IMG/VR virus record: IMGVR_UViG_2619619134_000016
Length of the DNA: 27,207 nucleotides
Source: a virus
Taxonomy: Duplodnaviria > Heunggongvirae > Uroviricota > Caudoviricetes
Reading direction: 5' to 3' (one strand)
Both the position numbers and the translations under genes were made by a program. This document shows, one piece after another, positions 8,184 to 27,207 of the stretch. Positions within the stretch are counted from its first letter, which is position 1. Every line of letters starts with the position of its first letter. The notes under the pieces were generated by a model. The model saw nothing but the letters and a program-made list of their open reading frames with translations, was not told the DNA's origin and did no database searches.

Positions 8184-8334
8184 TCGTATTTCTTGTGTCA
8201 TTAATTGTTTGATGTTCAGATTGTTTTCCTCGCGGGCTGGCGCGCCTCAGAAAGTAAAGCTTGTTGACAGGGGTAAACGTTCGGCAATAATTTTCTGCCG
8301 CATGCGGGTGTTGCATAAAACGTGTTACGTTCCT

Positions 8335-8640: not shown

Positions 8641-8653
8641 TTGTAATTACAAG
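8601..8653 (+). promoter_or_regulatory. relBE promoter and operator: -35 TTGCCC (8601..8606), -10 GATACT (8624..8629), operator repeats CTTGTAATGACATTTGTAATTACAAG (8628..8653)
   Basis: TTGTAAT/ATTACAA inverted-repeat operator read directly upstream of relB; consistent with RelB/RelE autoregulation at relO. Confidence 0.65.
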
Positions 8654-8664
8654 AGGTGTAAGAC

Positions 8665-8904
8665 ATGGGTAGCATTAACCTGCGTATTGACGATGAACTT
8701 AAAGCGCGTTCTTACGCCGCGCTTGAAAAAATGGGTGTAACTCCTTCTGAAGCGCTTCGTCTCATGCTCGAGTATATCGCTGACAATGAACGCTTGCCGT
8801 TCAAACAGACACTCCTGAGTGATGAAGATGCTGAACTTGTGGAGATAGTGAAAGAACGGCTTCGTAATCCTAAGCCAGTACGTGTGACGCTGGATGAACT
8901 CTGA
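8665..8904 (+). CDS. relB: RelB antitoxin, 79 aa
   Basis: Product MGSINLRIDDELKARSYAALEKMGVTPSEALRLMLEYIADNERLPFKQTLLSDEDAELVEIVKERLRNPKPVRVTLDEL matches RelB as I recall it; stop overlaps the relE start (TGATG). Confidence 0.9.
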   Translation: MGSINLRIDDELKARSYAALEKMGVTPSEALRLMLEYIADNERLPFKQTLLSDEDAELVEIVKERLRNPKPVRVTLDEL

Positions 8905-9191
8905 TGGCGTATTTTCTGGATTTTGACGAGCGGGCACTAAAGGAATGGCGAAAGCTGGGCTCGACGGTACGTGAACAGTTGAAAAAGAAGCTGGTTGAAG
9001 TACTTGAGTCACCCCGGATTGAAGCAAACAAGCTCCGTGGTATGCCTGATTGTTACAAGATTAAGCTCCGGTCTTCAGGCTATCGCCTTGTATACCAGGT
9101 TATAGACGAGAAAGTTGTCGTTTTCGTGATTTCTGTTGGGAAAAGAGAACGCTCGGAAGTATATAGCGAGGCGGTCAAACGCATTCTCTGA
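8904..9191 (+). CDS. relE: RelE toxin (ribosome-dependent mRNA endonuclease), 95 aa
   Basis: Product MAYFLDFDERALKEWRKLGSTVREQLKKKLVEVLESPRIEANKLRGMPDCYKIKLRSSGYRLVYQVIDEKVVVFVISVGKRERSEVYSEAVKRIL matches RelE. Confidence 0.9.
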   Translation: MAYFLDFDERALKEWRKLGSTVREQLKKKLVEVLESPRIEANKLRGMPDCYKIKLRSSGYRLVYQVIDEKVVVFVISVGKRERSEVYSEAVKRIL

Positions 9192-9262
9192 ACCAAAGCA
9201 TGACATCTCTGTTTCGCACCGAAGGTGACACTTCTGCTTTGCGTTGACAGGAGAAGCAGGCT

Positions 9263-9418
9263 ATGAAGCAGCAAAAGGCGATGTTAATCGCCCTGATCGT
9301 CATCTGTTTAACCGTCATAGTGACGGCACTGGTAACGAGGAAAGACCTCTGCGAGGTACGAATCCGAACCGGCCAGACGGAGGTCGCTGTCTTCACAGCT
9401 TACGAACCTGAGGAGTAA
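9263..9418 (+). CDS. hokD: Hok-family membrane toxin HokD (RelF), 51 aa
   Basis: Hand translation from ATG 9263 to TAA 9416..9418 gives MKQQKAMLIALIVICLTVIVTALVTRKDLCEVRIRTGQTEVAVFTAYEPEE; below the track cutoff. Confidence 0.85.
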   Translation: MKQQKAMLIALIVICLTVIVTALVTRKDLCEVRIRTGQTEVAVFTAYEPEE

Positions 9419-9486
9419 GAGACCCGGCGGGGGAGAAATCCCTCGCCACCTCTGATGTGGCAGGCATCCTCAACGCACCCGCACTT

Positions 9487-9510
9487 AACCCGCTTCGGCG
9501 GGTTTTTGTT
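9487..9510 (+). terminator. Rho-independent terminator after the relB-relE-hokD operon
   Basis: GC-rich hairpin ACCCGC-TTCG-GCGGGT followed by a T-run. Confidence 0.6.
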
Positions 9511-9634
9511 TTTATTTTCAACGCGTTTGAAGTTCTGGACGGTGCCGGAATAGAATCAAAAATACTTAAGTAGCGCGCAGGGATAAGAGGGATGGTCCCT
9601 TAAAGGGGAGAGCTAATTATCCGGAAGGATTCTG

Positions 9635-9886
9635 ATGATGAACATCGAAGAACTGCGTAAAATTTTTTGTGAAGATGGCCTCTATGCTGTGTGCGTTGAA
9701 AATGGAAATCTTGTTAGTCATTACCGCATTATGTGTTTGCGAAAGAATGGGGCTGCGTTAATTAATTTTGTGGATGCTCGGGTCACGGACGGATTTATCT
9801 TGCGCGAAGGTGAGTTTGTCACTTCATTACAGGCATTGAAAGAGATCGGAATAAAAGCTGGCTTTTCTGCTTTTTCAGGAGAATAA
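9635..9886 (+). CDS. rem: Rem, small prophage protein, 83 aa
   Basis: 83-aa ORF immediately downstream of hokD, matching rem by size and position. Confidence 0.6.
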   Translation: MMNIEELRKIFCEDGLYAVCVENGNLVSHYRIMCLRKNGAALINFVDARVTDGFILREGEFVTSLQALKEIGIKAGFSAFSGE

Positions 9887-9952
9887 ACTCATCTACAATC
9901 TTGCGCGGGGCTGAACTCCCGCTGAGTAACACCGTGCCACCGGAGAAAACCG

Positions 9953-10231
9953 ATGGCACGCAACGCAAAATATTACAATTCTGATAATTCGCCCGTTCTT
10001 GCCTGCACGCACGGGCGGTATTCTCACGCATTCAAGTCTGAATGGTTCCAGCACCCTCCATGCACTGCAGAACAGGCCGAATGGCTGATTCATTCTTACC
10101 GCAGGCGCGGGTTCGAGGTTAAGAAAGCTCTCAGTCTCGACTATCGGCACTGGATAATCTCTGTCAGGCTGCCTTATTCCGAACGCCCACCACGTGCGTC
10201 CCGCACTTTCCAGCAACGGATCTGGAGGTAA
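9953..10231 (+). CDS. Hypothetical protein, 92 aa
   Basis: ATG at 9953 preceded by a GGAGAA Shine-Dalgarno; ends 2 nt before the ydfU start, suggesting co-transcription. Confidence 0.4.
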   Translation: MARNAKYYNSDNSPVLACTHGRYSHAFKSEWFQHPPCTAEQAEWLIHSYRRRGFEVKKALSLDYRHWIISVRLPYSERPPRASRTFQQRIWR

Positions 10232-10232
10232 C

Positions 10233-11282
10233 GTGCGGGTATTACTTAGACCTGTTCTGGTGCCTGAGCTTGGGCTGGTGGTCCTTAAGCCGGGCCGTGA
10301 ATCCATACAGATATTTCATAATCCTCGAGTGCTGGTGGAACCGGAACCAAAAAGCATGCGTAATCTGCCATCCGGAGTCGTTCCTGCCGTTCGCCAGCCG
10401 CTGGCGGAAGACAAAACATTGCTGCCGTTTTTTAGTAACGAACGGGTGATTCGTGCTGCTGGCGGCGTTGGCGCATTGTCCGACTGGCTATTACGTCATG
10501 TTACATCCTGCCAGTGGCCTAATGGCGATTACCATCACACTGAAACAGTCATTCACCGTTATGGTACCGGCGCAATGGTGTTGTGCTGGCACTGCGACAA
10601 CCAACTGCGTGACCAGACATCGGAATCACTGGAGCTGCTTGCTCAACAAAATCTGACAGCATGGGTGATTGACGTCATCCGTCACGCAATAAGCGGTACG
10701 CAGGAGCGGGAATTATCTTTGGCTGAATTATCCTGGTGGGCGGTCTGCAATCAGGTGGTGGATGCACTACCTGAGGCTGTATCGCGTCGTTCGCTGGGAT
10801 TACCAGCGGAAAAAATCTGCTCGGTGTACCGCGAAAGCGACATCGTACCGGGAGAGCAGACCGCCACCAGCATATTGAAACAACGCACAAAAAATCTTGC
10901 ACCGTTGCCTTACGCCCACCAGCAACAAAAATCACCACAGGAAAAGACGGTGGTAAGCATCACCGTTGATCCAGAGTCTCCGGAATCTTTCATGAAGCTG
11001 CCTAAACGTCGCCGCTGGGTTAAGGAGAAATACACACGTTGGGTTAAGACACAGCCGTGTGCTTGCTGCGGTATGCCAGCCGACGATTCGCATCATCTGA
11101 TTGGTCACGGGCAGGGCGGAATGGGAACAAAAGCACATGATCTCTTTGTGTTGCCTTTGTGCAGAAAGCATCACAACGAGCTGCATACGGATACAGTGGC
11201 ATTTGAAGATAAGTATGGCTCCCAACTGGAGCTGATATTTCGTTTTATCGATCGCGCGCTGGCAATTGGCGTACTGGCGTAA
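10233..11282 (+). CDS. ydfU: YdfU-like protein with C-terminal Cys/His (HNH-like) motif, 349 aa from GTG 10233
   Basis: Track ORF is 362 aa from an upstream GTG; a start at GTG 10233 gives 349 aa, the size I recall for YdfU. C-terminus carries CACCGMPADDSHHLIGHG...CRKHHNELH, an HNH/zinc-finger-like pattern. Confidence 0.6.
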   Translation: MRVLLRPVLVPELGLVVLKPGRESIQIFHNPRVLVEPEPKSMRNLPSGVVPAVRQPLAEDKTLLPFFSNERVIRAAGGVGALSDWLLRHVTSCQWPNGDYHHTETVIHRYGTGAMVLCWHCDNQLRDQTSESLELLAQQNLTAWVIDVIRHAISGTQERELSLAELSWWAVCNQVVDALPEAVSRRSLGLPAEKICSVYRESDIVPGEQTATSILKQRTKNLAPLPYAHQQQKSPQEKTVVSITVDPESPESFMKLPKRRRWVKEKYTRWVKTQPCACCGMPADDSHHLIGHGQGGMGTKAHDLFVLPLCRKHHNELHTDTVAFEDKYGSQLELIFRFIDRALAIGVLA

Positions 11283-11295
11283 GTGGAGAACGAGC

Positions 11296-12048
11296 ATGAA
11301 CCTTGAAGCCTTACCAAAATATTACTCCCCAAAATCTCCAAAATTGAGCGATGACGCTCCAGCGACAGGCACCGGTTGTTTAACAATTACGGATGTAATG
11401 GCAGCGCAGGGGATGGTGCAGTCGAAAGCACCACTTGGGTTGGCCTTATTTCTGGCAAAAGTTGGTGTTCAGGACCCTCAGTTTGCGATTGAAGGCCTGC
11501 TAAATTACGCGATGGCACTGGATAACCCGACATTGAACAAATTGAGTGAAGAAATCCGGTTACAGATTATTCCTTACCTCGTGAGTTTTGCATTTGCTGA
11601 TTACTCCAGGTCTGCGGCAAGTAAGGCTCGCTGTGAGCATTGTTCAGGTACGGGATTTTATAATGTATTGCGCGAAGTGGTGAAACACTACAGACGCGGG
11701 GAATCTGTAATCAAGGAAGAATGGGTGAAGGAACTATGTCAGCATTGCCATGGTAAGGGCGAAGCCAGCACAGCGTGCAGAGGGTGTAAGGGTAAAGGGA
11801 TTGTTCTGGATGAAAAAAGAACCCGGTTTCATGGCGTACCGGTATATAAGATTTGTGGGCGTTGTAATGGAAACCGGTTTAGTCGTTTACCGACCACGCT
11901 GGCACGACGTCATGTCCAGAAGCTGGTACCAGACCTGACCGATTATCAGTGGTATAAGGGGTATGCGGACGTCATTGGTAAACTGGTAACAAAGTGCTGG
12001 CAGGAAGAAGCATACGCGGAAGCGCAATTGAGGAAGGTGACGAGATAA
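11296..12048 (+). CDS. quuQ: Late-gene antiterminator Q, 250 aa from ATG 11296
   Basis: Cys-rich region (CEHCSGTG...CQHCHGKG...CRGCKGKG) typical of Q-family zinc-binding antiterminators; position just upstream of the lysis/late region; 250 aa matches QuuQ. Confidence 0.7.
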   Translation: MNLEALPKYYSPKSPKLSDDAPATGTGCLTITDVMAAQGMVQSKAPLGLALFLAKVGVQDPQFAIEGLLNYAMALDNPTLNKLSEEIRLQIIPYLVSFAFADYSRSAASKARCEHCSGTGFYNVLREVVKHYRRGESVIKEEWVKELCQHCHGKGEASTACRGCKGKGIVLDEKRTRFHGVPVYKICGRCNGNRFSRLPTTLARRHVQKLVPDLTDYQWYKGYADVIGKLVTKCWQEEAYAEAQLRKVTR

Positions 12049-12154
12049 ATGATTTTTGCTGAAGATGGCGACATGATGTTTGCATTTTTCAAAAAATATG
12101 GATAAAATTTTTTCAACGATGGGCTTTGTATACCCGACGTTAAGAAAAAGTAGA

Positions 12155-12178
12155 AAACCCGCTGATGAGCGGGTTTTG
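12155..12178 (+). terminator. Rho-independent terminator downstream of Q; candidate tR' of the late operon
   Basis: Hairpin CCCGCT-GATG-AGCGGG followed by a T-run, about 110 nt after the Q stop. Confidence 0.55.
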
Positions 12179-12469
12179 TGCTTTAAATGGGGCAATGGTA
12201 ATGTTGAATCTCATCCCGGGACTCATGTCTGTTAACTTATTATTTAGCTGGTGACTTGGTTATTTGCCTGATGTTTAAAATGTTTTCTTCCAGTACAATG
12301 TCCCTAAACACAATGAGTCTGCTTATTATATTATTAGCAGAGCTATTACGGCCAAAGTACAGCATAAGATTTTAAAGCCAATCAACCAGTCATCAAGACA
12401 GACGGAGTTATTCATAAAAACTCTCCATGTGTGATCCGATGGGGCCTGAAATTAAAGCTTTAATATAGC

Positions 12470-12670
12470 TCATGAAAGGTAAACATTGGCAGCTGAAGGG
12501 CCACGCAGACCATTTATCCGGTAAAATTCCACGCGTAATCCGGTGGTAATTTCTTCTGCATCGCGGAGATTGAGCGCTGAAACATGAAGCTGGACATCGA
12601 TACGACCATCGGATGGGGTGATAAGACCCTTGCCGCTTTTGCCGTCAAAGTTTTTGACAATTCCTGTCAT
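12470..12670 (-). CDS. cspF: Cold-shock-domain protein, 66 aa
   Basis: Product [66 protein letters not shown] is a CspA-family fold; divergent partner of cspB as in Qin. An in-frame stop lies 5 codons upstream of the ATG, so the product is 66 aa. Confidence 0.7.
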
Positions 12671-12980
12671 TTTAGGGGACAGAAAAACTCCTTAATACTG
12701 ATAACCTGGTGCACCATACACACGTTCCTGGAGAAAACTACTTTTTTGATAGGATTGAAGGTGGCTGGATGTCTAAAATAAACATTGCTTCATATGTTCA
12801 ACTATGAGTTAATGACTGCGTCGGTTTGAAGAACAGACGATATACGAAGTAGTTTACTAAAGCAGTTCTCATTTCAGGTGTTATTCACTTATTCCTTCTT
12901 TGAGTCTCTCCAATTAAGTACGAAGTCGTTTCTGTTATGCAAACCATTTATGCCGAAAGGCTCAAGTTAAGGAATGTAGA

Positions 12981-13196
12981 ATGTCAAATAAAATGACTGG
13001 TTTAGTAAAATGGTTTAACGCTGATAAAGGTTTCGGCTTTATTTCTCCTGTTGATGGTAGTAAAGATGTGTTTGTGCATTTTTCTGCGATTCAGAATGAT
13101 AATTATCGAACCTTATTTGAAGGTCAAAAGGTTACCTTCTCTATAGAGAGTGGTGCTAAAGGTCCTGCAGCAGTAAATGTCATCATTACTGATTAA
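12981..13196 (+). CDS. cspB: Cold-shock protein CspB, 71 aa
   Basis: [71 protein letters not shown]; CspA family with RNP motifs; long 5' leader typical of cold-shock genes. Confidence 0.85.
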
Positions 13197-13477
13197 AATT
13201 CATCGCTCGTCTGTATACGATAACGAAGAAGGCTGATGCCTGAGTAGAGATACGGACAGAGTAGTGAATATTGGATCTCTTTAATAAAAAGTAAGGAGGT
13301 CCAATACATGAAACAATGGCCAGCATATTTGGCAAAATCTTAATCAGGAAAAGTATGCTAACCATTGTGGTGAAGTGCAGGTTTGCTGCATGAATAGTTT
13401 CACAGCAGAAGCTAACTGCTGGCATCGCAAAACAAAGTGCGTAAGTGGATGACTCCCACAAAAAGCACCACAATCTC

Positions 13478-13502
13478 AAACCCGCTCAGGCGGGTTTTTT
13501 AT
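13478..13502 (+). terminator. Hairpin plus T-run terminator
   Basis: AAACCCGC-TCAG-GCGGGTTT followed by TTTTTT. Confidence 0.5.
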
Positions 13503-13559
13503 TATCTGCTTTAAATATATTATTAAAATATAAAAAATACTTGTTACTAATAAAATCAA

Positions 13560-13730
13560 TCAGGCTACAGCTTTAAGATTTGTCTGGAATACTTTGTTGC
13601 AATGAGGGCAGATCAAAAGGGCACCTTTTTGTACTCTTGAAAAACTGTGTTCTGACTCTTGGGTGCAGTTTGGGCAGGAACATTTAACGAGATAATTACG
13701 GCGTGATTTTGAGTCTTTACGTTCTGACAT
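13560..13730 (-). CDS. Small zinc-ribbon protein, 56 aa (CxxC...CxxC); possibly the YnfU small protein
   Basis: Internal ATG at 13730..13728 with an AGGAAA Shine-Dalgarno gives MSERKDSKSRRNYLVKCSCPNCTQESEHSFSRVQKGALLICPHCNKVFQTNLKAVA; two Cys pairs form a zinc-ribbon signature. Confidence 0.45.
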   Translation of the reverse strand: MSERKDSKSRRNYLVKCSCPNCTQESEHSFSRVQKGALLICPHCNKVFQTNLKAVA

Positions 13731-13949
13731 AGGCTTTTCCTGTATAAATGGCCGTATACAGTACACTAAATATGAAAACATTTCTCGTATTATTATTTTA
13801 TATATGACTTTCTTTCAAAATAATTACCCACATTTTTAATGTGTATGTTTTTTTAGCGCCGTTGAGAACAACGTGTGCTGTCAAAACTACCCCGTAGACT
13901 CCGATCTTTTCAAACATATTGCACCATCCGTGTACATCGGGGTGAGGAT

Positions 13950-14165
13950 ATGAAATCAATGGATAAGTTAACAACAGGTGTTGCCTATGGCACATCGGCG
14001 GGTAATGCTGGTTTCTGGGCATTGCAGTTACTCGATAAAGTAACTCCGTCACAGTGGGCTGCAATCGGTGTGCTGGGTAGCCTGGTTTTTGGCCTGCTGA
14101 CGTATCTGACAAATCTTTATTTCAAGATTAAAGAAGACAGGCGTAAGGCTGCGAGAGGAGAGTAA
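13950..14165 (+). CDS. essQ: Holin (class II/pinholin-like), 71 aa
   Basis: ATG at 13950 after a GGTGAGGA Shine-Dalgarno; product has two hydrophobic segments and a charged C-terminus; first gene of the lysis cassette. Confidence 0.75.
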
Positions 14166-14169
14166 TCCA

Positions 14170-14477
14170 ATGACTCAAGACTATGAACTGGTTGTGAAAG
14201 GAGTCCGTAATTTTGAGAATAAAGTTACGGTAACTGTAGCCTTACAGGACAAGGAACGCTTTGACGGTGAAATTTTTGACCTGGATGTCGCCATGGACCG
14301 TGTTGAAGGAGCTGCGCTGGAGTTTTATGAGGCAGCAGCCAGAAGGAGCGTCCGGCAAGTCTTCCTGGAAGTAGCAGAAAAATTGTCAGAAAAAGTTGAG
14401 TCTTATCTGCAGCATCAGTACTCCTTTAAGATTGAAAATCCTGCCAATAAGCACGAGCGTCCTCATCATAAATATAT

Positions 14478-14481
<4 letters not shown>
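14170..14481 (+). CDS. ydfR: Hypothetical lysis-cassette protein, 103 aa
   Basis: 103-aa ORF between holin and lysozyme; matches ydfR by size and position. Confidence 0.6.
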
Positions 14482-15505
<1,024 letters not shown>

Positions 15506-15866
15506 GGTAATATTAAATCGGAACATTTACATCGCGGAATGTAAAATTTAAATAAAAAGGACTCTTCCATGAGCCAAAATTCCTGAAATCTTAAGGGTAA
15601 GATAAAAGGTCTTAATCAGAATGACACGTTTTATTAATAAATAAAGCTATTCTTTCATTGCTGTGTTTTTCTTTACAAAAGTAATCCTTGCTATGGGTGG
15701 TTAATCATGCGTTAATGGTGTTCTGGTTTGTTACAAATTTATCTGAAGCAGTCATTGTTATAATTTTATTATTTGTACCTCTTGAGATTTCCTTGTTGGT
15801 TTTTCTCTCTGATATTTTTTTCGGACCATTCTGCCCAAGGGCTAATTTCTTCAAAAGGTAATAATT

Positions 15867-16079
15867 ATGTCTAACAAAATGACTGGTTTAGTGAAATGGT
15901 TTAACCCTGAAAAAGGTTTTGGTTTCATCACGCCGAAAGATGGCAGCAAAGATGTGTTTGTCCATTTCTCAGCAATTCAGAGCAACGATTTCAAAACATT
16001 AACTGAGAATCAGGAAGTTGAATTTGGTATTGAGAACGGACCTAAAGGTCCTGCCGCTGTTCATGTAGTGGCGCTTTGA
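15867..16079 (+). CDS. cspI: Cold-shock protein CspI, 70 aa
   Basis: [70 protein letters not shown]; CspA family. Confidence 0.85.
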
Positions 16080-16284
16080 GGTAGACAATATTACAAACCA
16101 TATTCACTTTAGATGCCCGTGTTGTCATGGTTCCCAGTATAGAACATCATCTTTTGATGTTTCTGACATGAATCCTTTCGGGGCAAAATGTATCTTTTGT
16201 AAATCAATGATGATTACATTTGATAATATTTCACAATACTTAAATGCCAGCCGTCTGTCGTTGGATTTAAAAAAGTGAAAATGA

Positions 16285-16308
16285 AGGCTCCTTCGGGAGC
16301 TTTTTTGC
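16285..16308 (+). terminator. Rho-independent terminator downstream of cspI
   Basis: Hairpin GCTCC-TTCG-GGAGC followed by TTTTTT. Confidence 0.6.
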
Positions 16309-16350
16309 TTGGTGTCTATTCGATGGATACTCACATACTACGGTAACATC

Positions 16351-16581
16351 ATGAAAAAAATCATAGTTTTTTTTAACTCTGAACCAGCAGTGGTAGTGCC
16401 AGCGATGACTGGAGTTAACACCATCATGCGTGAATATCCAAATGGCGAAAAAACACACCTTACTGTAATGGCCGCAGGGTTTCCATCTCTGACCGGAGAT
16501 CATAAAGTCATTTATGTAGCCGCGGATCGACATGTTACTTCAGAAGAAATTCTGGAAGCAGCAATAAGGCTCTTGAGTTGA
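16351..16581 (+). CDS. Hypothetical protein, 76 aa from ATG 16351
   Basis: Track ORF only; weak ribosome-binding site; starts right after a terminator. Confidence 0.25.
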   Translation: MKKIIVFFNSEPAVVVPAMTGVNTIMREYPNGEKTHLTVMAAGFPSLTGDHKVIYVAADRHVTSEEILEAAIRLLS

Positions 16582-16752
16582 TTTGATGCTATTGCATTGA
16601 TAATTCAGGAAAATTCTCTTTGTCTGTTTGTGTAAAATTTAGACTATCGTATGTTGATTATTGCGATGTTTCATCTTATCTTTTAAACGTTTGCACCATA
16701 TAATCGACTTACTGTGTAACTGGAAAGTCATAACAGACTAAAAGAGGAAATG

Positions 16753-16926
16753 ATGAATATTGAAAACTTAAAAACAAAAGCAGAAGCAGATATTTCTGAA
16801 TATATAACAAAAAAAATTATTGAACTTAAGAAAAAGACCGGGAAAGAAGTTACCAGTATTCAGTTTACCGCACGGGAAAAAATGACGGGTCTTGAAAGCT
16901 ATGATGTCAAGATTAATTTAATCTGA
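16753..16926 (+). CDS. gnsB: GnsB, small protein, 57 aa
   Basis: Hand translation from ATG 16753 gives MNIENLKTKAEADISEYITKKIIELKKKTGKEVTSIQFTAREKMTGLESYDVKINLI; AAGAGGAAA Shine-Dalgarno upstream; matches GnsB as I recall it. Confidence 0.75.
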   Translation: MNIENLKTKAEADISEYITKKIIELKKKTGKEVTSIQFTAREKMTGLESYDVKINLI

Positions 16927-17077
16927 TGTATTCAATAATAAAATTTATCCATAAACCTCGTTTTTACGGGGTTTTGTTATATTTGAATGGTTCCGAATAT
17001 CTAAATCACAATTGTTGATGGTTTTTATTAAACCAATGCAGTCCGGCTCAGGAGTGAAAGAAGCCGGACGTTATGGT

Positions 17078-17488
17078 TTAGCGTGGTAAGATCTGTGTAG
17101 TTTTCTGGATGCTTTCAGTAAATGGTAATGAATTATCAAAGGTATAGTAATATCTTTTTTGTTCGTGGATATTTGTAACCCACCGAAAAACTCCTGCTTT
17201 AGCAAGGTTTCTTCTGTATTCCTGAAATGTGATCTCTCTGGATTTCAGCTTATTAGAGGTCGTTTCTATAAGATGCCTATCCTTTGAAAATTTGACAGAC
17301 ACAATGTTTTTTAGGCCCTTTAATAACACTGTATTATCATTTTTTAATACAATATGAACATTCTCTGTGGCTAAATAGTAAATGTAATGTGAGACATTGT
17401 GACGTTTTAGCTCAGAATAAAACCATTGATAGTTTAAATCGTTTCGAACTTTATCAAATATTTGTTTAAAAATGACTACCTGATCCAT
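17078..17488 (-). CDS. ydfO: YdfO-like protein, 136 aa from internal ATG 17488
   Basis: Track ORF is 141 aa; the second ATG has a GGAAGG Shine-Dalgarno and gives 136 aa, the size I recall for YdfO; position next to nohQ. Confidence 0.6.
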
Positions 17489-17545
17489 AGATAAACCTTC
17501 CATGTGATATGAGGGGGCGTAGTCTGCACGATTATCTAAATTGCT

Positions 17546-17779
17546 TCAATCTGGTCTGACCTGTTTTCTGAGCAATTCAGTAATGTCACTCTTTTCTTTG
17601 TTTGCTTCAGAAGAAACTCTTTTTTCTGAGCACAGTCTCCGGCGGCAGGCTTCAATGACCCAGGCTGAGAAATTCCCGGACCCTTTTTGCTCAAGAGCGA
17701 TGTTAATTTGTTCAATCATTTGGTTAGGAAAGCGGATGTTGCGGGTTGTTGTTCTGCGGGTTCTGTTCTTCGTTGACAT
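17546..17779 (-). CDS. ynfO: Small basic protein, 77 aa, possible ribbon-helix-helix regulator
   Basis: 77-aa ORF adjacent to ydfO; size and position match ynfO. Confidence 0.5.
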   Translation of the reverse strand: MSTKNRTRRTTTRNIRFPNQMIEQINIALEQKGSGNFSAWVIEACRRRLCSEKRVSSEANKEKSDITELLRKQVRPD

Positions 17780-17939
17780 GAGGTTGTCCCGTATTCAGTG
17801 TCGCTGATTTGTATTGTCTGAAGTTGTTTTTACGTTAAGTTGATGCAGATCAATTAATACGATATCTGCGTCATAATTGATTATTTGACGTGGTTTGATT
17901 GCGTAGATGCACGTTGTGACATGCAGATGATAATTATTA

Positions 17940-18160
17940 TCATTTTGCGGGTCCTTTCCGGCGATCCGACAGGTTACGGGGCGGCGACCTCGCGGGTTTT
18001 CGCTATTTATGAAAATTTTCCGGTTTAAGGCGTTTCCGTTCTTCTTCGTTGTAACTTAATGTTTTTATTTAAAATACCCCCTGAAAAGAAAGGAAACGAC
18101 AGGTGCTGAAAACGAGCTTTTGGGCCTCTGTCGTTTCCTTTCTCTGTTTTTGGCCGTGGA
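17940..18160 (+). other. Lambda-type cos packaging site: cosN 12-nt cohesive-end sequence GGGCGGCGACCT at 17979..17990, with flanking cosQ and cosB-like sequence upstream of Nu1
   Basis: 17941..18100 reads ...GCGATCCGACAGGTTACG GGGCGGCGACCT CGCGGGTTTTCGCTATTTATGAAAATTTTCCGGTTTAAGGCG..., which I recognise as the joined right and left ends of the phage lambda genome. Confidence 0.85.
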
Positions 18161-18167
18161 ATGAACA

Positions 18168-18713
18168 ATGGAAGTCAACAAAAAGCAGCTGGCTGACATT
18201 TTCGGTGCGAGTATCCGTACCATTCAGAACTGGCAGGAACAGGGAATGCCCGTTCTGCGAGGCGGTGGCAAGGGTAATGAGGTGCTTTATGACTCTGCCG
18301 CCGTTATAAGATGGTATGCCGAAAGGGATGCTGAAATTGAGAACGAAAAGCTGCGCCGGGAAGTTGAAGAACTGCGGCAGGCCAGCGAGGCAGATCTCCA
18401 GCCAGGGACTATTGAGTACGAACGCCATCGACTTACGCGTGCGCAGGCCGACGCACAGGAACTGAAGAATGCCAGAGACTCCGCTGAAGTGGTGGAAACC
18501 GCATTCTGTACTTTCGTGCTGTCGCGGATCGCAGGTGAAATTGCCAGTATTCTCGACGGGATCCCCCTGTCGGTGCAGCGGCGTTTTCCGGAACTGGAAA
18601 ACCGACATGTTGATTTCCTGAAACGGGATATCATCAAAGCCATGAACAAAGCAGCCGCGCTGGATGAACTGATACCGGGGTTGCTGAGTGAATATATCGA
18701 ACAGTCAGGTTAA
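18168..18713 (+). CDS. nohQ: Terminase small subunit Nu1, 181 aa
   Basis: MEVNKKQLADIFGASIRTIQNWQEQGMPVLRGGGKGNEVLYDSAAVIRWYAERDAEIEN... matches lambda Nu1 as I recall it; overlaps the start of gene A as in lambda. Confidence 0.85.
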   Translation: MEVNKKQLADIFGASIRTIQNWQEQGMPVLRGGGKGNEVLYDSAAVIRWYAERDAEIENEKLRREVEELRQASEADLQPGTIEYERHRLTRAQADAQELKNARDSAEVVETAFCTFVLSRIAGEIASILDGIPLSVQRRFPELENRHVDFLKRDIIKAMNKAAALDELIPGLLSEYIEQSG

Positions 18714-20394
18714 CAGGCTGCGGCATTTTGTCCGCGCCGGGCTTCGCTCACTGTTCCGGCCGGAGCCACAGACCGCCGTTGAATGGGCGGATGCCAATTA
18801 CTATCTCCCGAAAGAATCCGCATACCAGGAAGGGCGCTGGGAAACACTGCCCTTTCAGCGGGCCATCATGAATGCGATGGGCAGTGACTACGTCCGCGAG
18901 GTGAATGTGGTGAAGTCTGCCCGTGTTGGTTATTCCAAAATGCTGCTGGGTGTTTATGCCTACTTCATAGAGCATAAGCAGCGCAACACCCTTATCTGGT
19001 TGCCGACGGATGGTGATGCCGAGAACTTTATGAAAACCCACGTTGAGCCGACCATCCGCGATATTCCGTCGCTGCTGGCGCTGGCTCCGTGGTATGGCAA
19101 AAAGCACCGGGATAACACGCTCACCATGAAGCGTTTTTCCAATGGTCGTGGCTTCTGGTGCCTGGGCGGTAAAGCGGCAAAAAACTACCGTGAAAAGTCG
19201 GTGGATGTGGCGGGTTATGATGAACTTGCTGCCTTTGATGAGGATATTGAACAGGAAGGCTCTCCGACGTTCCTGGGCGATAAGCGTATTGAAGGCTCGG
19301 TCTGGCCAAAGTCCATCCGTGGCTCCACGCCCAAAGTGAGAGGCACCTGTCAGATTGAGCGTGCAGCCAGTGAATCCCCGCATTTTATGCGTTTTCATGT
19401 TGCCTGCCCGCACTGCGGGGAGGAGCAGTACCTTAAATTTGGCGATAAAGAGACGCCGTTTGGCCTCAAATGGACGCCGGATGACCCCTCCAGCGTGTTT
19501 TATCTCTGCGAACATAACGCCTGCGTCATCCGTCAGCAGGAGCTGGACTTCACTGATGCCCGTTATATCTGCGAAAAGACCGGGATCTGGACCCGTGATG
19601 GCATTCTCTGGTTTTCGTCATCCGGTGAAGAGATTGAACCGCCTGACAGCGTGACCTTTCACATCTGGACGGCGTACAGCCCGTTCACCACCTGGGTGCA
19701 GATTGTCAAAGACTGGATGAAGACGAAAGGGGATACGGGAAAACGTAAAACCTTCGTGAACACCACGCTCGGTGAGACGTGGGAGGCGAAAATTGGCGAA
19801 CGTCCGGATGCTGAAGTGATGGCAGAGCGGAAAGAGCATTATTCAGCGCCCGTTCCTGACCGTGTGGCTTACCTGACCGCCGGTATCGACTCCCAGCTGG
19901 ATCGCTACGAAATGCGCGTATGGGGATGGGGGCCGGGTGAGGAAAGCTGGCTGATTGACCGGCAGATTATTATGGGTCGCCACGACGATGAACAGACGCT
20001 GCTGCGTGTGGATGAGGCCATCAATAAAACCTATACCCGCCGGAATGGTGCAGAAATGTCGGTATCCCGTATCTGCTGGGATACTGGCGGGATTGACCCT
20101 ACCATTGTGTATGAACGCTCGAAAAAACATGGGCTGTTCCGGGTGATCCCCATTAAAGGGGCATCCGTCTACGGTAAGCCGGTGGCCAGCATGCCACGTA
20201 AGCGAAACAAAAACGGGGTTTACCTTACCGAAATCGGTACGGATACCGCGAAAGAGCAGATTTATAACCGCTTCACACTGACGCCGGAAGGGGATGAACC
20301 GCTTCCCGGTGCCGTTCACTTCCCGAATAACCCGGACACAGAACACGGCAGCCGCGAAGAAGTCAGCCGGCGATGCCGGCACATCAGCCCGTGA
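18688..20394 (+). pseudogene. Terminase large subunit A, 3'-truncated: about 550 codons of lambda-like gpA, then out-of-frame stf-derived codons to a stop
   Basis: Product matches lambda gpA from MNISNSQVNRLRHFVRAG... to ...[11 protein letters not shown], then diverges into 18 unrelated codons ([18 protein letters not shown]). Intact lambda gpA is about 641 aa. Confidence 0.8.
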
Positions 20395-23326
20395 GGCGGC
20401 AACCCATGCGACTGATGCTGCAGGCTCAGCACGCGCAGCCAGCACGTCAGCCGGACAGGCCGCGTCGTCGGCTCAGTCAGCGTCTTCCAGCGCAGGAACG
20501 GCATCAACAAAGGCCAGTGAAGCATCGAAAAGTGCTGCTGCTGCAGAGTCCTCAAAAAGCGCGGCAGCTACCAGTGCCAGTGCCGCGAAAACGTCAGAAA
20601 CGAATGCCGCAGCGTCACAACAATCAGCAGCCACTTCTGCATCCACCGCGACCACGAAAGCGTCAGAAGCTGCCACCTCAGCCCGGGATGCGGCGGCCTC
20701 AAAAGAGGCAGCGAAATCATCAGAAACGAACGCATCCTCGAGCGCCAGTAGCGCAACTTCCTCGGCAACGGCGGCAGGAAATTCCGCGAAGGCGGCAAAA
20801 ACGTCCGAGACGAACGCCAGGTCTTCTGAGACGGCAGTGGGACAGAGCGCCTCAGCTGCGGCAGGCTCAAAAACAGCGGCTGCATCATCTGCCAGCGCCG
20901 CGTCAACAAGTGCCGGGCAGGCCTCAGCCAGTGCCACCGCCGCCGGAAAATCGGCAGAAAGCGCCGCATCATCCGCTTCAACAGCCACAACGAAGGCTGG
21001 CGAAGCCACTGAACAGGCCAGCGCAGCAGCGAGTTCTGCTTCCGCAGCGAAGACATCCGAAACGAACGCGAAAGCGTCGGAAACCAGCGCAGAATCCTCA
21101 AAAACGGCTGCCGCATCGTCAGCCAGTTCGGCGGCGTCATCGGCATCATCGGCGTCTGCTTCAAAAGATGAGGCGACCAGACAGGCGTCAGCAGCGAAGG
21201 GCAGCGCCACGACAGCATCCACGAAGGCGACAGAGGCAGCTGGCAGTGCGACGGCGGCAGCACAGAGCAAAAGTACGGCGGAATCCGCGGCAACACGCGC
21301 CGAGACAGCGGCAAAACGGGCAGAGGATATTGCATCCGCCGTGGCGCTTGAGGATGCGAGCACGACGAAAAAGGGGATAGTACAGCTCAGCAGTGCGACT
21401 AACAGTACGTCTGAAACGCTGGCGGCAACGCCAAAGGCAGTAAAATCAGCCTATGACAATGCAGAGAAACGTCTGCAGAAAGACCAGAACGGCGCTGATA
21501 TACCCGATAAGGGACGCTTCCTGAACAACATTAACGCGGTCAGTAAAACAGACTTTGCTGATAAGCGTGGTATGCGTTATGTGCGGGTTAACGCTCCTGC
21601 AGGTGCAACATCTGGAAAATATTACCCTGTTGTTGTTATGCGTTCTGCTGGCTCAGTAAGCGAACTGGCATCAAGGGTCATTATCACCACGGCAACGCGA
21701 ACCGCAGGCGATCCGATGAATAACTGCGAGTTTAACGGATTTGTTATGCCTGGTGGCTGGACTGACAGGGGGCGTTATGCTTATGGAATGTTCTGGCAAT
21801 ATCAAAACAATGAACGAGCCATCCACTCAATAATGATGAGTAATAAGGGCGATGATTTGCGCTCTGTGTTCTATGTTGATGGCGCTGCTTTCCCTGTTTT
21901 TGCGTTTATCGAAGATGGCCTGTCAATATCCGCACCTGGTGCTGATCTCGTTGTTAATGATACGACCTATAAGTTTGGGGCAACAAATCCAGCGACTGAA
22001 TGTATCGCGGCGGACGTTATCCTTGATTTTAAGAGTGGGCGTGGTTTTTATGAGTCTCATTCGTTAATCGTTAACGATAATTTGTCGTGCAAAAAACTTT
22101 TTGCCACAGACGAAATTGTAGCGCGTGGTGGTAATCAGATTCGAATGATAGGTGGGGAGTATGGTGCATTATGGCGTAATGATGGCGCTAAAACTTACCT
22201 GCTGCTTACCAATCAAGGTGATGTTTATGGTGGCTGGAATACATTAAGACCGTTTGCTATTGATAACGCAACCGGCGAACTGGTTATTGGAACCAAACTG
22301 TCCGCAAGTCTGAACGGTAATGCATTAACAGCAACAAAGCTGCAAACGCCAAGACTGGTTTCTGGTGTTGAGTTTGATGGTTCCAGAGATATTACTTTAA
22401 CCGCCGCGCATGTGGCTGCTTTTGCCAGAAGGGCAACGGATACATATGCCGATGCGGATGGTGGCGTTCCCTGGAATGCCGAATCAGGTGCTTACAATGT
22501 CACCCGCTCTGGCGACAGCTATATTCTGGTTAACTTCTATACCGGAGTCGGAAGTTGCCGGACCCTGCAGATGAAGGCGCATTACAGAAATGGTGGTCTG
22601 TTCTACCGTTCTTCAAGAGACGGTTATGGTTTTGAGGAAGACTGGGCAGAAGTTTATACCTCGAAAAATCTTCCACCAGAAAGCTACCCAGTCGGCGCAC
22701 CAATCCCGTGGCCATCAGATACCGTTCCGTCTGGTTATGCCCTGATGCAGGGGCAGACTTTTGACAAATCTGCTTACCCGAAACTTGCAGCCGCTTATCC
22801 GTCAGGCGTGATCCCTGATATGCGTGGCTGGACGATTAAGGGCAAACCTGCCAGTGGTCGGGCCGTATTGTCTCAGGAACAGGACGGCATTAAATCGCAT
22901 ACCCACAGCGCCAGCGCATCCAGTACGGATTTGGGGACGAAAACCACATCGTCGTTTGATTACGGCACTAAATCCACGAATAACACCGGGGCGCATACCC
23001 ATAGTGTTAGCGGTACGGCTGCTTCAGCCGGTGCACATACCCATTCGATGACATTTGTTTCAGGTGGTTCCAGTGGTGCTCCGGGAAGTGGAGCATCTGA
23101 TTATTCTAAATACAGTGTTAACACTTCTTCTGCAGGCGCTCATACGCACTCTGTATCGGGTACTGCTGCAAGCGCAGGTGCACACGCACATACTGTGGGT
23201 ATTGGTGCTCATACGCACTCCGTTGCGATTGGTTCACATGGACACACCATCACCGTTAACGCTGCTGGTAACGCGGAAAACACCGTCAAAAACATCGCAT
23301 TTAACTATATTGTGAGGCTTGCATAA
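20294..23326 (+). CDS. stfQ: Side tail fibre Stf, 5'-truncated remnant; 1010-aa open frame whose first ~14 codons are out-of-frame terminase sequence
   Basis: From about codon 15 the product matches the lambda Stf pattern (Ala/Ser/Thr-rich repeats ...AAKTSETNA..., then ...[36 protein letters not shown]..., and a C-terminal His-rich GAHTHS/GAHAHT repeat tip ending [11 protein letters not shown]). Whether the fortuitous ATG at 20294 is used is unknown. Confidence 0.75.
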
Positions 23327-23901
23327 TGGTATTCAGAATGAGTGAACAACCACGGACCATAACAATTTATAATCTGCTGGCCGGAACTAATGAATTTATT
23401 GGTGAAGGTGATGCATATATTCCGCCTCATACAGGTCTGCCAGCAAACAGTACCGATATTGCACCGCCAGATATTCCGGCAGGCTTCGTGGCTGTTTTCA
23501 ACAGTGATGAGGCATCGTGGCATCTCGTTGAAGATCATCGGGGTAAAACGGTTTATGACGTGGCTTCCGGCGACGCGTTATTTATTTCTGAACTCGGTCC
23601 GTTACCGGAAAATGTTACCTGGTTATCGCCGGAAGGGGAGTTTCAGAAGTGGAACGGTACAGTCTGGGTGAAGGATACGGAAGCAGAAAAACTGTTCCGG
23701 ATCCGGGAGGCGGAAGAAACAAAAAACAGCCTGATGCAGGTAGCCAGTGAGCATATAGCGCCACTTCAGGATGCTGTAGATCTGGAAATCGCAACGGAGG
23801 AAGAAACCTCATTGCTGGAAGCCTGGAAAAAGTATCGGGTGTTGCTGAACCGTGTTGATACATCAACTGCACAGGATATTGAATGGCCAGCACTGCCGTA
23901 G
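23326..23901 (+). CDS. tfaQ: Tail fibre assembly protein Tfa, 191 aa
   Basis: Start overlaps the stf stop (TAATG); 191 aa; follows stf as in lambda and Qin. Confidence 0.8.
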
Positions 23902-23998
23902 GGTAAAACATATAAATTCTATAATTAGATGTATCTTTCCATTTACGGCAAGGAAGGGGGCTTGGAAGACGTAAAGCATCTCACACCGAGATTATTTT

Positions 23999-24589
23999 TT
24001 ATATGTCAGGTGTCTGAAGTTTTGCTTTGGCTCTTAAAATGGTTTGCCGCGAGGTTTTGAATTCCCGGGCAATGGCACTTATACTTACACCTGACTTAAT
24101 TCGTTCGAATACCACCTGTTTCTGTTCTTCATTTAACACAGGTGGTCGACCAAAACGTTTCCCTGCGCCGCGGGCTCTTACTATCCCGGAATGAGTGCGT
24201 TCAAGTAAAAGGTCTCGTTCAAATTCAGCGACTGCTGAAATTACGTGCATCATCATTTTTCCTGTTGGACTGGTCAGGTCAATGCCCCCCAATGCTAAGC
24301 AATGCACTCTGATACCTGTTTCGGTCAGTTGTTCCACTGTTTTCCTGATATCCATTGCATTACAACCAAGGCGATCCAGTTTTGTCACAATCAATTGATC
24401 ACCACATTTCAGGCGAGCAAGCAACCGGTTAAAACCAGGACGCTCACTGGTTGCTGCTGAGCCACTAATGTGTTCTTCGATTATTTGCTGAGGTTTGATT
24501 TTAAAACCTGCACTTTCGATTTCCCGGCGTTGATTTTCGGTGGTCTGATCCAGCGTTGATATCCGACAGTAAGCAAAAATTTGAGACAT
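23999..24589 (-). CDS. pinQ: Serine site-specific DNA invertase (Pin/Hin/Gin family), 196 aa
   Basis: N-terminal catalytic motif (YCRISTLDQ), resolvase/invertase core and C-terminal HTH; 196 aa; next to tfa. Confidence 0.85.
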
Positions 24590-24905
24590 AGTGAGACTCT
24601 ATACGAAATTGGTGTTCATATCATAATGCATCTCAGAAAATAATTATGATTATTTTTGTGCATATTTGTATGTACACGTTCGAAAATAAACGAATGCGTA
24701 TGCAACCCCGTAATTTTGGTGAGACCCAAAATCGATTTTGTGAAAAATGGCTTTAACTCGGTTTGTTTTTCGAGTTCCGGGCGGACTCAAGGAAGAAGAA
24801 TAGTGTTGCGTGTTATTTTAACCAGATTTCAAGTTGTTTGGTCGTGGAAAAGTGGAGCAAAATGTTGTTAAAGTGGAAAAATGATAAAAAAGTAAGTTTA
24901 TTATA

Positions 24906-25139
24906 TTACATTTTACCATTTAAATTTTGGTTGTCTTTAAGAACTGATATCGCTGTTTGTAATAATTCTTTGTTATCCAGCCATGATTTTTTCTTTATGT
25001 TTCCTTCAATGTAATCAAGCAATGTTCTGGTATTGATAGGTCTTCCCTGTTTTGCTACTTCCACTACAGCATCCCCTAGGATAATTCTTACTTCAGGAAG
25101 CTGCGCAGGGAACCACTTTAGGGTGTCTTTTGATTTCAT
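24906..25139 (-). CDS. ydfK: YdfK-like small protein, 77 aa from internal ATG 25139
   Basis: Track ORF is 88 aa; the second ATG gives 77 aa, the size I recall for YdfK; last prophage gene before the host junction. Confidence 0.55.
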   Translation of the reverse strand: MKSKDTLKWFPAQLPEVRIILGDAVVEVAKQGRPINTRTLLDYIEGNIKKKSWLDNKELLQTAISVLKDNQNLNGKM

Positions 25140-25923
25140 GAAGATATTCCTTAAAATATTATTGATTTTCATTGCGATATTGTATGTCTGATTCAGGATA
25201 TGTTGACTTATACATCGGTTTTGCCTGGGTTATTGGATATGCCAATCCCTAATTTTATTAGGGCATGACTAAAAATGCTGAATATGATAAGGAGAGATGT
25301 GATTATCAGTATGCTGTTCATATAACCTCGAATTAGTAATGTGTTATATATGATATAGTTGACAATTTTTATCTTGGGTGTTCTTAAAGTTCGTAGATAA
25401 ACATTGTCGTTTCAGGTATACAGGAATGCTAACAGGTGGCAGCAAAAATCAGGCGGTTTATGGCGCAAGCTGAAGCGGCAACTGCAAACTATCTTATGCA
25501 GAGACTCTACACGGATTGGGTTTAAAAGTATACATAGATAACAGTTTTTATCTGAAGAAGAAAAATATCAAGGTGATATAGCCTATATGCCTATGATGCG
25601 GAGGAATGAATGTGATGGGAGTGATGTATCTGAATAGTTGAAAAACCGCAGTCACGTCGTATGCAAGAACGTGCTGCGGTTGGCTGGTAAATTTTTCGAT
25701 AGTGCGAGTATTGAATGATTTCCAGCCGTTATTGATTTTACGCGTAAATCCATGAAAAAACTACTTATCTGTTGGGGAGTTTTTTGGGGCATATATGGGA
25801 CAGAAATAGGCCCCAGATAGACACTGAGATCGAACTTAGGATGCTTTTAAAAAAATGCAACTATCTGAAAAAACCTAGAAAACGCCAAGGAAACCACAGG
25901 ATGGGAAAAAACACCTGTGAATT

Positions 25924-27207
25924 ATGGATTTCCAGTTATATTCGCTCGGCGCAGCGTTAGTGTTTCATGAAATATTTTTTCCTGAATCATCAACGGCAAT
26001 GGCGTTAATTTTGGCAATGGGAACCTACGGTGCAGGTTATGTGGCGCGTATTGTCGGAGCATTTATTTTCGGCAAAATGGGCGACAGAATAGGGCGTAAA
26101 AAAGTGCTCTTTATTACCATCACCATGATGGGGATCTGTACCACCTTAATTGGTGTGTTACCGACCTATGCACAGATTGGTGTTTTTGCCCCCATCTTGC
26201 TGGTGACGCTGCGTATTATTCAGGGATTGGGTGCAGGTGCGGAAATTTCCGGTGCCGGTACGATGCTGGCGGAATATGCGCCAAAAGGTAAGCGCGGAAT
26301 TATCTCCTCATTTGTAGCTATGGGAACTAACTGCGGAACCTTGAGCGCAACGGCAATCTGGGCCTTTATGTTCTTCATTCTCAGTAAAGAGGAACTGCTG
26401 GCGTGGGGATGGCGTATACCGTTCCTGGCGAGCGTTGTCGTGATGGTCTTTGCTATCTGGTTACGTATGAATCTGAAAGAAAGCCCGGTCTTTGAGAAGG
26501 TTAATGACAGTAACCAACCGACAGCAAAACCTGCACCTGCTGGTAGCATGTTCCAGAGCAAATCCTTCTGGCTGGCAACAGGGCTGCGTTTTGGTCAGGC
26601 GGGTAACTCCGGTTTAATTCAGACTTTCCTTGCAGGCTATTTAGTGCAGACGTTATTGTTTAACAAAGCAATTCCAACAGATGCATTGATGATTAGTTCG
26701 ATTCTCGGCTTTATGACCATTCCGTTCCTTGGTTGGTTATCCGATAAAATTGGTCGCCGGATCCCGTATATTATTATGAATACCTCCGCGATTGTGCTGG
26801 CATGGCCAATGCTTTCTATCATCGTAGATAAAAGCTATGCCCCGAGCACCATTATGGTTGCACTGATTGTGATTCATAACTGTGCGGTGCTGGGATTATT
26901 TGCTCTGGAAAACATTACCATGGCAGAAATGTTCGGCTGTAAAAACCGCTTTACCCGGATGGCTATTTCTAAAGAAATTGGTGGTCTTATTGCTTCCGGT
27001 TTTGGTCCTATCCTGGCGGGTATTTTCTGCACCATGACGGAATCCTGGTATCCGATCGCCATTATGATCATGGCATATTCAGTGATTGGTTTAATCTCTG
27101 CGCTGAAAATGCCAGAGGTGAAAGACCGTGATTTAAGTGCGCTGGAAGACGCTGCGGAAGATCAACCGCGTGTTGTAAGAGCTGCGCAACCTTCCAGAAG
27201 TCTGTAA
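25924..27207 (+). pseudogene. ydfJ: MFS transporter, 5'-truncated host gene (ydfJ-like) at the prophage/chromosome junction
   Basis: 427-aa ORF runs to a natural stop at the window end; MFS motif A (GKMGDRIGRKK) sits at residue ~50 instead of ~80-90, and an in-frame TGA lies 2 codons upstream of the first ATG, so roughly 30-40 N-terminal residues are missing. Confidence 0.7.

Follow-up and report, generated by a model that had tools for sequence, protein, structure and literature searches.

A homology-free junction between terminase gene A and the side tail fibre gene in a Qin prophage of Escherichia coli

In the Qin prophage of an E. coli isolate, the 5' part of the terminase large-subunit gene A is joined directly to the middle of the side tail fibre gene stf, with none of the head and tail genes that separate the two in an undeleted relative. 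The best overall explanation, to which we assign a probability of roughly 90%, is that one illegitimate-recombination deletion in a full-length Qin like that of strain MB10 produced this A'-stf' junction.

Throughout, "the window" is the whole stretch of DNA analysed (27,207 nt). Judged by its sequence, it is the right two-thirds of the lambdoid cryptic prophage Qin, located at ydfJ in the E. coli isolate from subject/sample 3-073-06_S4. The window is collinear with K-12 Qin, at 99.5% identity over 11.5 kb (window 7179–18696) and at 98.6% over 23135–27207, where the right end runs into ydfJ. The gene set typical of Qin is present and in order: dicB, the dicA/dicC region, relBE, hokD, ydfU, ydfT, cspB/F, the lysis genes, cspI, gnsB, ydfO, ynfO, nohA, tfaQ and pinQ (gene names are taken from the aligned, annotated MB10 and ET490 records). 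Qin integrates into the 5' end of ydfJ (PMC6379469), and the truncated ydfJ' of the window lies beside ynfT, ydfK and pinQ, as it does in K-12 and MB10. The first base of the window falls within dicB; in MB10, the left end of the prophage is rspB-int-xis-exo. The features that bear on the junction are as follows.

17979–18167, plus strand: cos site, with the cosN cohesive-end sequence GGGCGGCGACCT at 17979–17990 followed by cosB as far as the Nu1 start (read directly from the sequence; window 17979 aligns with lambda nt 1, 97.9% identity).
18168–18713, plus strand: nohA, terminase small subunit (Nu1 homologue), intact, 181 aa (open reading frame list; annotated nohA at the aligned position in MB10 and ET490; PF07471 Phage_Nu1 on the identical gene in locus L004).
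18688–20336, plus strand: A', the 5' 1,649 nt of gene A with a GTG start; the last 91 codons are lost, the ATPase domain is kept, and so is the greater part of the nuclease domain (MB10 locus L003, 2989–4637).
20336/20337, no strand: deletion junction, blunt and without filler; the last base of A is 20336 and the first base of stf is 20337.
20337–20394, plus strand: out-of-frame tail of the A' reading frame, in which 18 stf codons are misread before a TGA (translation; exact product deposited).
20294–23326, plus strand: mechanical open reading frame of 1010 aa, made up of 14 +1-frame codons from A, a single hybrid codon and 995 codons from stf (open reading frame list and translation; expression putative).
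20337–23326, plus strand: stf', from nt 362 (second base of codon 121) to the stop, corresponding to residues 122–1116 of the MB10 fibre (alignment to MB10; Pfam domains).
23326–23901, plus strand: tfaQ, tail fibre assembly protein, intact (PF02413 Caudo_TAP, E = 3.5e-44; tfaQ in the annotation of the aligned genomes).
23999–24589, minus strand: pinQ, serine DNA invertase, intact (PF00239 Resolvase and PF02796 HTH_7; annotated pinQ).
25924–27207, plus strand: ydfJ', host gene truncated by the Qin insertion and marker of the right end of the prophage (aligned to MB10 ydfJ, which is annotated without its N-terminus, and to the right boundary of K-12 Qin).

Strain MB10 (NZ_CP073988.1), a close relative of the source lineage and not the true ancestor, has this prophage at the same site, with its A-to-stf module still complete. 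Window 15700–20336 corresponds to positions 1–4637 of the MB10 locus (L003) with 11 mismatches in 4,637 nt and no gaps, and window 20337–27207 corresponds to positions 22340–29210 with one mismatch in 6,871 nt. Furthermore, the first 18.1 kb of the window is 100.0% identical to MB10 as BLAST reports it, and the two prophages share the same early-region IS fragment and pseudogenes. They differ in that MB10 keeps the 17,702 bp containing all head and tail genes, and in that the annotation of its own A has a frameshift around codon 575, in a homopolymer run. Within the left arm, 8 of the 11 mismatches fall close together in A (19350–20003), indicating that this segment has a history of gene conversion, or of reads mixed with those from paralogous prophage A genes.

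Because both arms align over kilobases (99.8–99.99%) to one contiguous MB10 prophage, in which they are separated by 17,702 bp carrying the head and tail genes, the join is not a chance one. It connects A nt 1649 (codon 550) to stf nt 362 (codon 121), in frames that differ by one, and falls at 4637 | 22340 in the MB10 locus and at nt 2359 | nt 20011 in lambda. In matches to phages and to E. coli alike, the A side ends at 20336 and the stf side begins at 20337; all phage matches end or begin at query positions 2237/2238. The initial annotation had proposed, from the sequence alone, that a deletion removed the head and tail genes between A and stf, and this is what the alignments to undeleted MB10 and to lambda show. 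Relative to MB10, exactly 17,702 bp are gone: the 3' end of A (from nt 1650), every head gene (W, B, C/nu3, D, E, FI and FII), every tail gene (Z, U, V, G, T, H, M, L, K, I and J), lom and stf nt 1–361. No remnant of these genes is found at the junction, and comparison with MB10 gives 0 nt of microhomology between the breakpoints and no filler. The rest of the prophage has no head or tail genes either, as the window holds early, lysis and cargo genes only and the MB10 prophage to the left of it has nothing but int, xis and an exonuclease pseudogene.

Both genes at the junction are remnants. Residues 1–550 of the A-like frame (18688–20394) match lambda gpA at 99.3% as far as NNPD, the point at which its resemblance to lambda had been thought to end; 18 unrelated residues follow, encoded by out-of-frame stf rather than by any further gpA sequence, and the stop is at 20392–20394. 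The predicted product is 568 aa (550 native and 18 junk residues). It retains the ATPase domain (PF05876, residues 47–285, E = 9.4e-51), and its nuclease match (PF20454) covers residues 322–553, or profile positions 2–241 of 294. The lambda match stops at residue 550 of 641, so neither a complete nuclease domain nor the C-terminal region is present. Lambda gpA binds the prohead through its last ~32 residues.

On the other side, stf had been placed in the +1 frame from about 20336, and its matches indeed begin at 20337. The remnant retains Gp34_trimer, Collar and Phage_fiber domains, that is, the distal shaft and receptor-binding part of the fibre, and its cognate assembly gene tfaQ lies directly downstream. 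However, codons 1–120 are deleted, and with them the start codon of stf and the N-terminal tail-docking domain: PF08400 phage_tail_N (tail attachment), found at residues 1–134 of MB10 Stf, is missing from the window product. The ATG at 20294, noted earlier as a fortuitous start for a truncated fibre, is the earliest start codon in the stf frame (+1 relative to A) and does open the 1010-aa reading frame, but nothing supports its expression or use. A Shine-Dalgarno-like run, GGAAGGGG, abuts this ATG with a spacer of zero, and no gene on record has the 1010-aa product. This reading frame is most likely silent or useless debris. Counts in a promoter and terminator scan of 17800–24700 were at the shuffled expectation (8 vs 6.5 and 11 vs 8.0), which makes the scan uninformative.

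With this gene content, the element would be unable to form particles by itself. The deletion alone is enough to render the prophage defective, as had been proposed, but it was probably not the first lesion. The early region contains a truncated ISEsa1 transposase and several pseudogenes, and since these are common to the window and MB10, they are older than the A-stf deletion.

In the proposed history, a recent ancestor would have had a full-length Qin of ~48 kb resembling that of MB10. One event without need of homology, presumably end-joining or topoisomerase-type illegitimate recombination, would then have deleted the 17,702 bp from A nt 1650 to stf nt 361 and left A' and stf' joined out of frame. 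We infer a single step, although a small earlier deletion enlarged across its junction by a second one would leave identical sequence. Such a course, in which an older A-to-stf or W-to-stf deletion was later enlarged by one spanning its junction, is improbable. Nested decay does occur at the Qin locus: in MB19, 16 nt of gene B survive between W' and stf' and betray two deletions, and a second deletion lies within stf. The MB19-type breakpoints (L003 5013 | 22177) enclose less than the window deletion, so that an allele of this type is formally a possible precursor, and the K-12 deletion in turn encloses that of the window on both sides. Against this, the window junction has neither remnant nor filler. 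Furthermore, the window arms differ from undeleted MB10 by only 0.01–0.24%, compared to 1.2–3.3% between MB19 and MB10, and the window allele therefore derives from an MB10-like full-length prophage rather than from that of MB19. In MB19, a 10-nt "filler", CCGGACACAG, equals the 10-mer at the window junction; we rejected this link as coincidence, since the filler belongs to the 16-nt remnant of portal gene B. We also rejected the idea that the junction reflects MB10 regaining the module by phage recombination, given that two genes cut in mid-codon arise by deletion alone and that the right arm is mismatch-free for 4.9 kb starting at the junction.

That the join is a chimera of assembly, with A and stf from the same or another lambdoid prophage and the head and tail genes really in place, is very improbable. 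Lambdoid A and stf occur in several copies in E. coli genomes, where this region matches at a median of 4 places per genome, and the SNPs in A suggest some mixing of paralogues within short-read assemblies. Misassembly arises at shared repeats, however, and here the two sides share 0 nt and both flanks belong to one locus. In addition, the identical junction and the identical A' product occur in a second assembly, that of a sibling isolate (JNRZ01000026.1, GCA_000704965.1), which was sequenced and assembled separately and differs elsewhere, including in its own sequencing artefacts. Exact-protein look-up alone recovered the junction, through the A' products of two sibling isolates (KDU34700.1 from colony 3-073-06_S4_C3 and KDZ81928.1 from colony C1). 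Both assemblies derive from a single stool sample and so do not represent independent lineages. The exact junction was present in 0 of 5,426 complete E. coli genomes, in none of the GTDB species representatives (40-mer and 23-mer) and in none of the JGI metagenome contigs (30-mer).

Least probable of all is a programmed or enzyme-directed deletion, whether by PinQ acting on directly repeated crossover sites or as an adjacent deletion by an IS element. An intact pinQ lies 3.6 kb downstream of the junction and IS fragments occur in the prophage. Serine recombinases, however, exchange strands at a shared central dinucleotide within sites of roughly 26 bp, whereas these breakpoints have not one nucleotide in common; no gix-like site is present in the window at ≤3 mismatches, and matches to the core motif are at chance level. 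No IS or IS end is found at the junction.

Deletion of their morphogenesis genes is how lambdoid prophages such as Qin, Rac and DLP12 normally become cryptic, and several known prophages resemble the single-deletion product proposed here. Qin of K-12 MG1655 (nohA-stfQ-tfaQ-pinQ) is the same element at the same ydfJ site and also lacks the entire head and tail module. It shares the gene order on both sides (dicB...relBE...ydfT...lysis genes...cspI...nohA and tfaQ-pinQ-ydfK-ynfT-ydfJ') at 98.6–99.5% identity, but its deletion is larger, with the left breakpoint at A nt 9 (window 18696) and the right one deeper in stf, such that StfQ is 320 aa. Compared to K-12, the window retains 1,649 nt of A and 2,990 nt of stf, and it has an early-region segment (2354–7178, with the ISEsa1 fragment) that K-12 Qin does not. 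DLP12 of K-12 (nohD-aaaD-tfaD) likewise combines an intact Nu1 homologue with a short 5' remnant of A (pseudogene aaaD) fused straight to tail-fibre-assembly sequence; it is, however, another prophage at another site (argU), with ~300 nt of A left and stf absent.

Further parallels are the Qin alleles of ET490, GmM062, 11PC, 2020CK-00188, P15-25 and MB19, in which A (or W) is joined to lom or stf and the morphogenesis module is gone. Their breakpoints are all distinct (A nt 1176–2025; stf nt −295 to 1533), and each has 2–10 nt of microhomology or a remnant at the join, whereas the window has neither. The 2020CK-00188 allele is an in-frame A-Stf fusion. Altogether, at least eight distinct A-to-stf deletion alleles occur at the Qin locus across E. 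coli, in a set collected with a query made of the surviving ends and thus subject to ascertainment bias.

The Qin head and tail module has been deleted independently in many E. coli lineages with the ends spared, and these surviving ends (cos-nohA-A' and stf'-tfaQ-pinQ) might be under selection, with a non-killing prophage serving as a tail-fibre or host-range recombination donor or as a cos-bearing passenger of superinfecting lambdoid phages. Another idea is that the 1010-aa reading frame might be made as a free fibre fragment. We consider these ideas improbable, and selection on the ends gains no support from the allele series because the query consisted of those very ends. The junction is a new allele of a textbook process, ordinary prophage decay, and matters little alone. 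Our literature search found general treatments of Qin variability and no description of this junction; Qin size is known to vary among strains (PMC6379469). Of modest value, the near-isogenic window and MB10 show one 17.7-kb deletion "after" and "before", with a clean blunt, homology-free junction in a natural isolate, and the eight or more A-to-stf alleles could form a natural series on prophage erosion by illegitimate recombination.

GenBank labels the 568-aa A' product "phage terminase large subunit family protein", as if normal, and its gene call on the stf side begins at window 21341 and yields 661 aa, in place of the 1010-aa reading frame. Both A' and stf' should be annotated as pseudogenes.

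The A-like reading frame at 18688-20394 encodes 568 residues. Residues 1-550 match residues 1-550 of lambda gpA at 99.3%, and the last 18 match nothing in gpA. Every phage and E. coli match to the terminase large-subunit gene A ends at window position 20336, and every match to the side tail fibre gene stf begins at 20337. In lambda coordinates, nt 2359 is joined to nt 20011; within the genes, A nt 1649 meets nt 362 of the stf reading frame (orf-401). The initial annotation, made from the sequence alone, had placed this breakpoint at codon ~550 and at about 20336; alignment to phages, E. coli and lambda shows both to be exact.

Comparison with E. coli MB10 (NZ_CP073988.1), which has this prophage at the same site and retains a full lambda-like morphogenesis module, supports the single deletion from A to stf proposed initially. 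Window 15700-20336 aligns without gaps to positions 1-4637 of the MB10 Qin-locus stretch (L003; 11 mismatches), and window 20337-27207 aligns to L003 22340-29210 (1 mismatch). Absent from the window are the 17,702 bp of L003 4638-22339. These comprise the 3' 276 nt of A, the 5' 361 nt of stf and, between them, homologues of W, B, C (with nu3), D, E, FI, FII, Z, U, V, G, T, H, M, L, K, I, J and lom, the genes whose loss had been predicted. Relative to MB10, the breakpoints have no identical bases on either side and no insert, giving a blunt junction with zero microhomology. Head or tail genes were found neither elsewhere in the window nor to its left in MB10, where int, xis, a frameshifted exonuclease gene and ydfD lie.

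The window is a part of Qin, a lambdoid cryptic prophage of Escherichia coli. Identity to K-12 MG1655 Qin is 99.5% over 7179-18696 and 98.6% over 23135-27207, and the first 18.1 kb match MB10 at 100.0% as BLAST reports it. The right end carries tfaQ, pinQ, ydfK, ynfT and then a truncated host gene, ydfJ, the already published Qin integration site (PMC6379469).

Gene order of the window, read from annotations of aligned genomes
Early part, in order: dicB, ydfABC, dicA/dicC region, damaged replication region, relBE, hokD, rem, ydfU, ydfT (Q)
Middle, in order: cspF/B, lysis cassette, cspI, gnsB, ydfO, ynfO, cos
17979-18167: cos site, lambda-type and intact (cosN GGGCGGCGACCT plus cosB), upstream of intact nohA
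18168-18713: nohA, Nu1 homologue (terminase small subunit), from the aligned annotation
From 18688: A', the 5' remnant of A, after nohA and before stf', the 3' remnant of stf
23326-23901: tfaQ, after stf'
23999-24589, minus strand: pinQ, before truncated ydfJ

The same junction occurs in JNRZ01000026.1 (L004), a contig from a sibling isolate, and the join is therefore present in two separate assemblies. The exact 568-aa A' product has been deposited for each of the E. coli isolates 3-073-06_S4_C3 and 3-073-06_S4_C1 (KDU34700.1, KDZ81928.1). Repeat-driven misassembly is not plausible because no sequence is common to both sides of the join. Over 18,520 positions, contig and window disagree at 19: ten in its own poly-T sequencing smear, seven synonymous in A and two others. 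The ten (L004 816-852, window 9503-9539), nine of them changes to T, lie just past a hairpin and a run of T's that follow hokD, where window, MB10 and K-12 agree with one another, and are a sequencing artefact of that public assembly. Differences among window, contig and MB10 are concentrated in a 650-nt stretch of A (19350-20003), where those between window and contig are all synonymous. This clustering points to other lambdoid prophages in the genome, whose paralogous A genes may have taken part in gene conversion or contributed short reads to the assemblies. None of 5,426 complete E. coli genomes, no GTDB species representative and no JGI metagenome contig had the junction allele; it is rare.

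Because the junction is blunt and homology-free, the deletion would have arisen by illegitimate recombination, through end-joining or a topoisomerase-type exchange. Homologous recombination is ruled out by the lack of common sequence at the breakpoints, and IS action by the absence of any IS or IS end at the junction. The neighbouring PinQ invertase is likewise ruled out, as there are no crossover sites and no common core dinucleotide. A single-step deletion is the parsimonious view, since the join retains no piece of the deleted genes, in contrast to MB19, where 16 nt left over from the portal gene B reveal two deletions. The window arms diverge from full-length MB10 by 0.01-0.24%, whereas MB19 diverges from MB10 by 1.2-3.3%, and the window allele is therefore of recent origin from an MB10-like prophage. 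The 10-mer CCGGACACAG, found between W' and stf' in MB19 (L010 6526-6541), also spans the window junction (20332-20341). It belongs to the 16-nt B remnant (MB10 L003 5605-5620), and its presence in both alleles is a coincidence.

The Qin locus has lost its morphogenesis module repeatedly, each time at different breakpoints. At least seven other, differing junctions of A (or W) to lom or stf occur in Qin of other strains (L001, L005, L006-L010), with 2-10 nt microhomology or small remnants.

Deletion junctions at other Qin loci (nt within each gene)
ET490: A 1450 to lom, 3 nt microhomology
GmM062: A 1176 to stf 199, imperfect 10 nt
11PC: A 1468 to stf 770
2020CK-00188: A 1183 to stf 1063, in frame, annotated as intact protein
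P15-25: A 1484 to stf 1533
MB19: W' to B remnant to stf 199, further deletion in stf
K-12: A 9 to late stf

These junctions amount to a natural series of prophage-erosion alleles, found with a query of A' plus stf' that is biased to alleles keeping those ends and uninformative on selection. In ET490, lom' and the stf 5' end survive but A nt 1451-1649 are gone, and in the window it is the other way round; the two are therefore independent events. Across 189 strains, published Qin sizes span 11-97 kb (PMC6379469), and the DLP12 prophage of K-12 has an analogous arrangement, nohD-aaaD(A')-tfaD. The initial observation is confirmed and its interpretation supported: the window carries a new and rare deletion allele, which a well-known process has produced in a well-known cryptic prophage. 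It should also be noted that the 1172-aa terminase-tail-fibre fusion of 2020CK-00188 (L008 2089-5607) is labelled in RefSeq as an intact "terminase gpA endonuclease subunit" (WP_270097250.1).

The initial annotation attributed the defectiveness of the element to this deletion. The deletion alone is sufficient, but older lesions were already in place. In the early/replication region (~4046-7363), a truncated ISEsa1 transposase gene, a pseudogene for a methyltransferase and further frameshifted ORFs are all common to undeleted MB10 and therefore older than the deletion. Both the A and exonuclease genes are annotated as frameshifted in MB10; the 1-nt frameshift in A (L003 2989-4913), which falls in a run of A's close to codon 575, could be genuine and the gene a pseudogene, or it could be a sequencing error in the homopolymer. 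With cos and nohA intact, the defective prophage might in principle remain recognisable as a packaging substrate to a helper lambdoid phage.

A' lacks the last 91 residues, within which the prohead-binding C-terminus of the lambda terminase large subunit lies. The ATPase domain (PF05876) is kept, and the nuclease-domain match (PF20454) stops at profile position 241 of 294. Asp550 is restored by chance from the two nucleotides left of codon 550 and the first stf base, after which the frame reads out-of-frame stf DNA for 18 codons and then TGA.

The stf' remnant lacks codons 1-120 and the first base of codon 121. In MB10 Stf (1116 aa), residues 1-134 match the PF08400 "prophage tail fibre N-terminal" domain, and a domain search found no PF08400 match in the stf' ORF of the window; the distal domains Gp34_trimer, Collar and Phage_fiber, and tfaQ, are intact. 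The first start codon of the stf frame is indeed the ATG at 20294 noted initially, within the A' reading frame. It opens a 1010-aa ORF in which 14 codons of A DNA, read in the +1 frame, are followed by a hybrid codon and then by 995 codons of stf. The purine run GGAAGGGG abuts this ATG with no spacer (anti-Shine-Dalgarno pairing -6.7 kcal/mol). The GenBank gene caller passed over this ORF and called a 661-aa product from window 21341. A putative truncated fibre could not act as a tail fibre because it would have no docking domain and no tail. On the minus strand, long antisense ORFs (255-296 aa) occupy the Ala/Ser-rich repeat region of stf' (20473-21363). One is called as a 265-aa gene in the GenBank assembly GCA_000704965.1; as the sequence is of low complexity, this call is most likely spurious.
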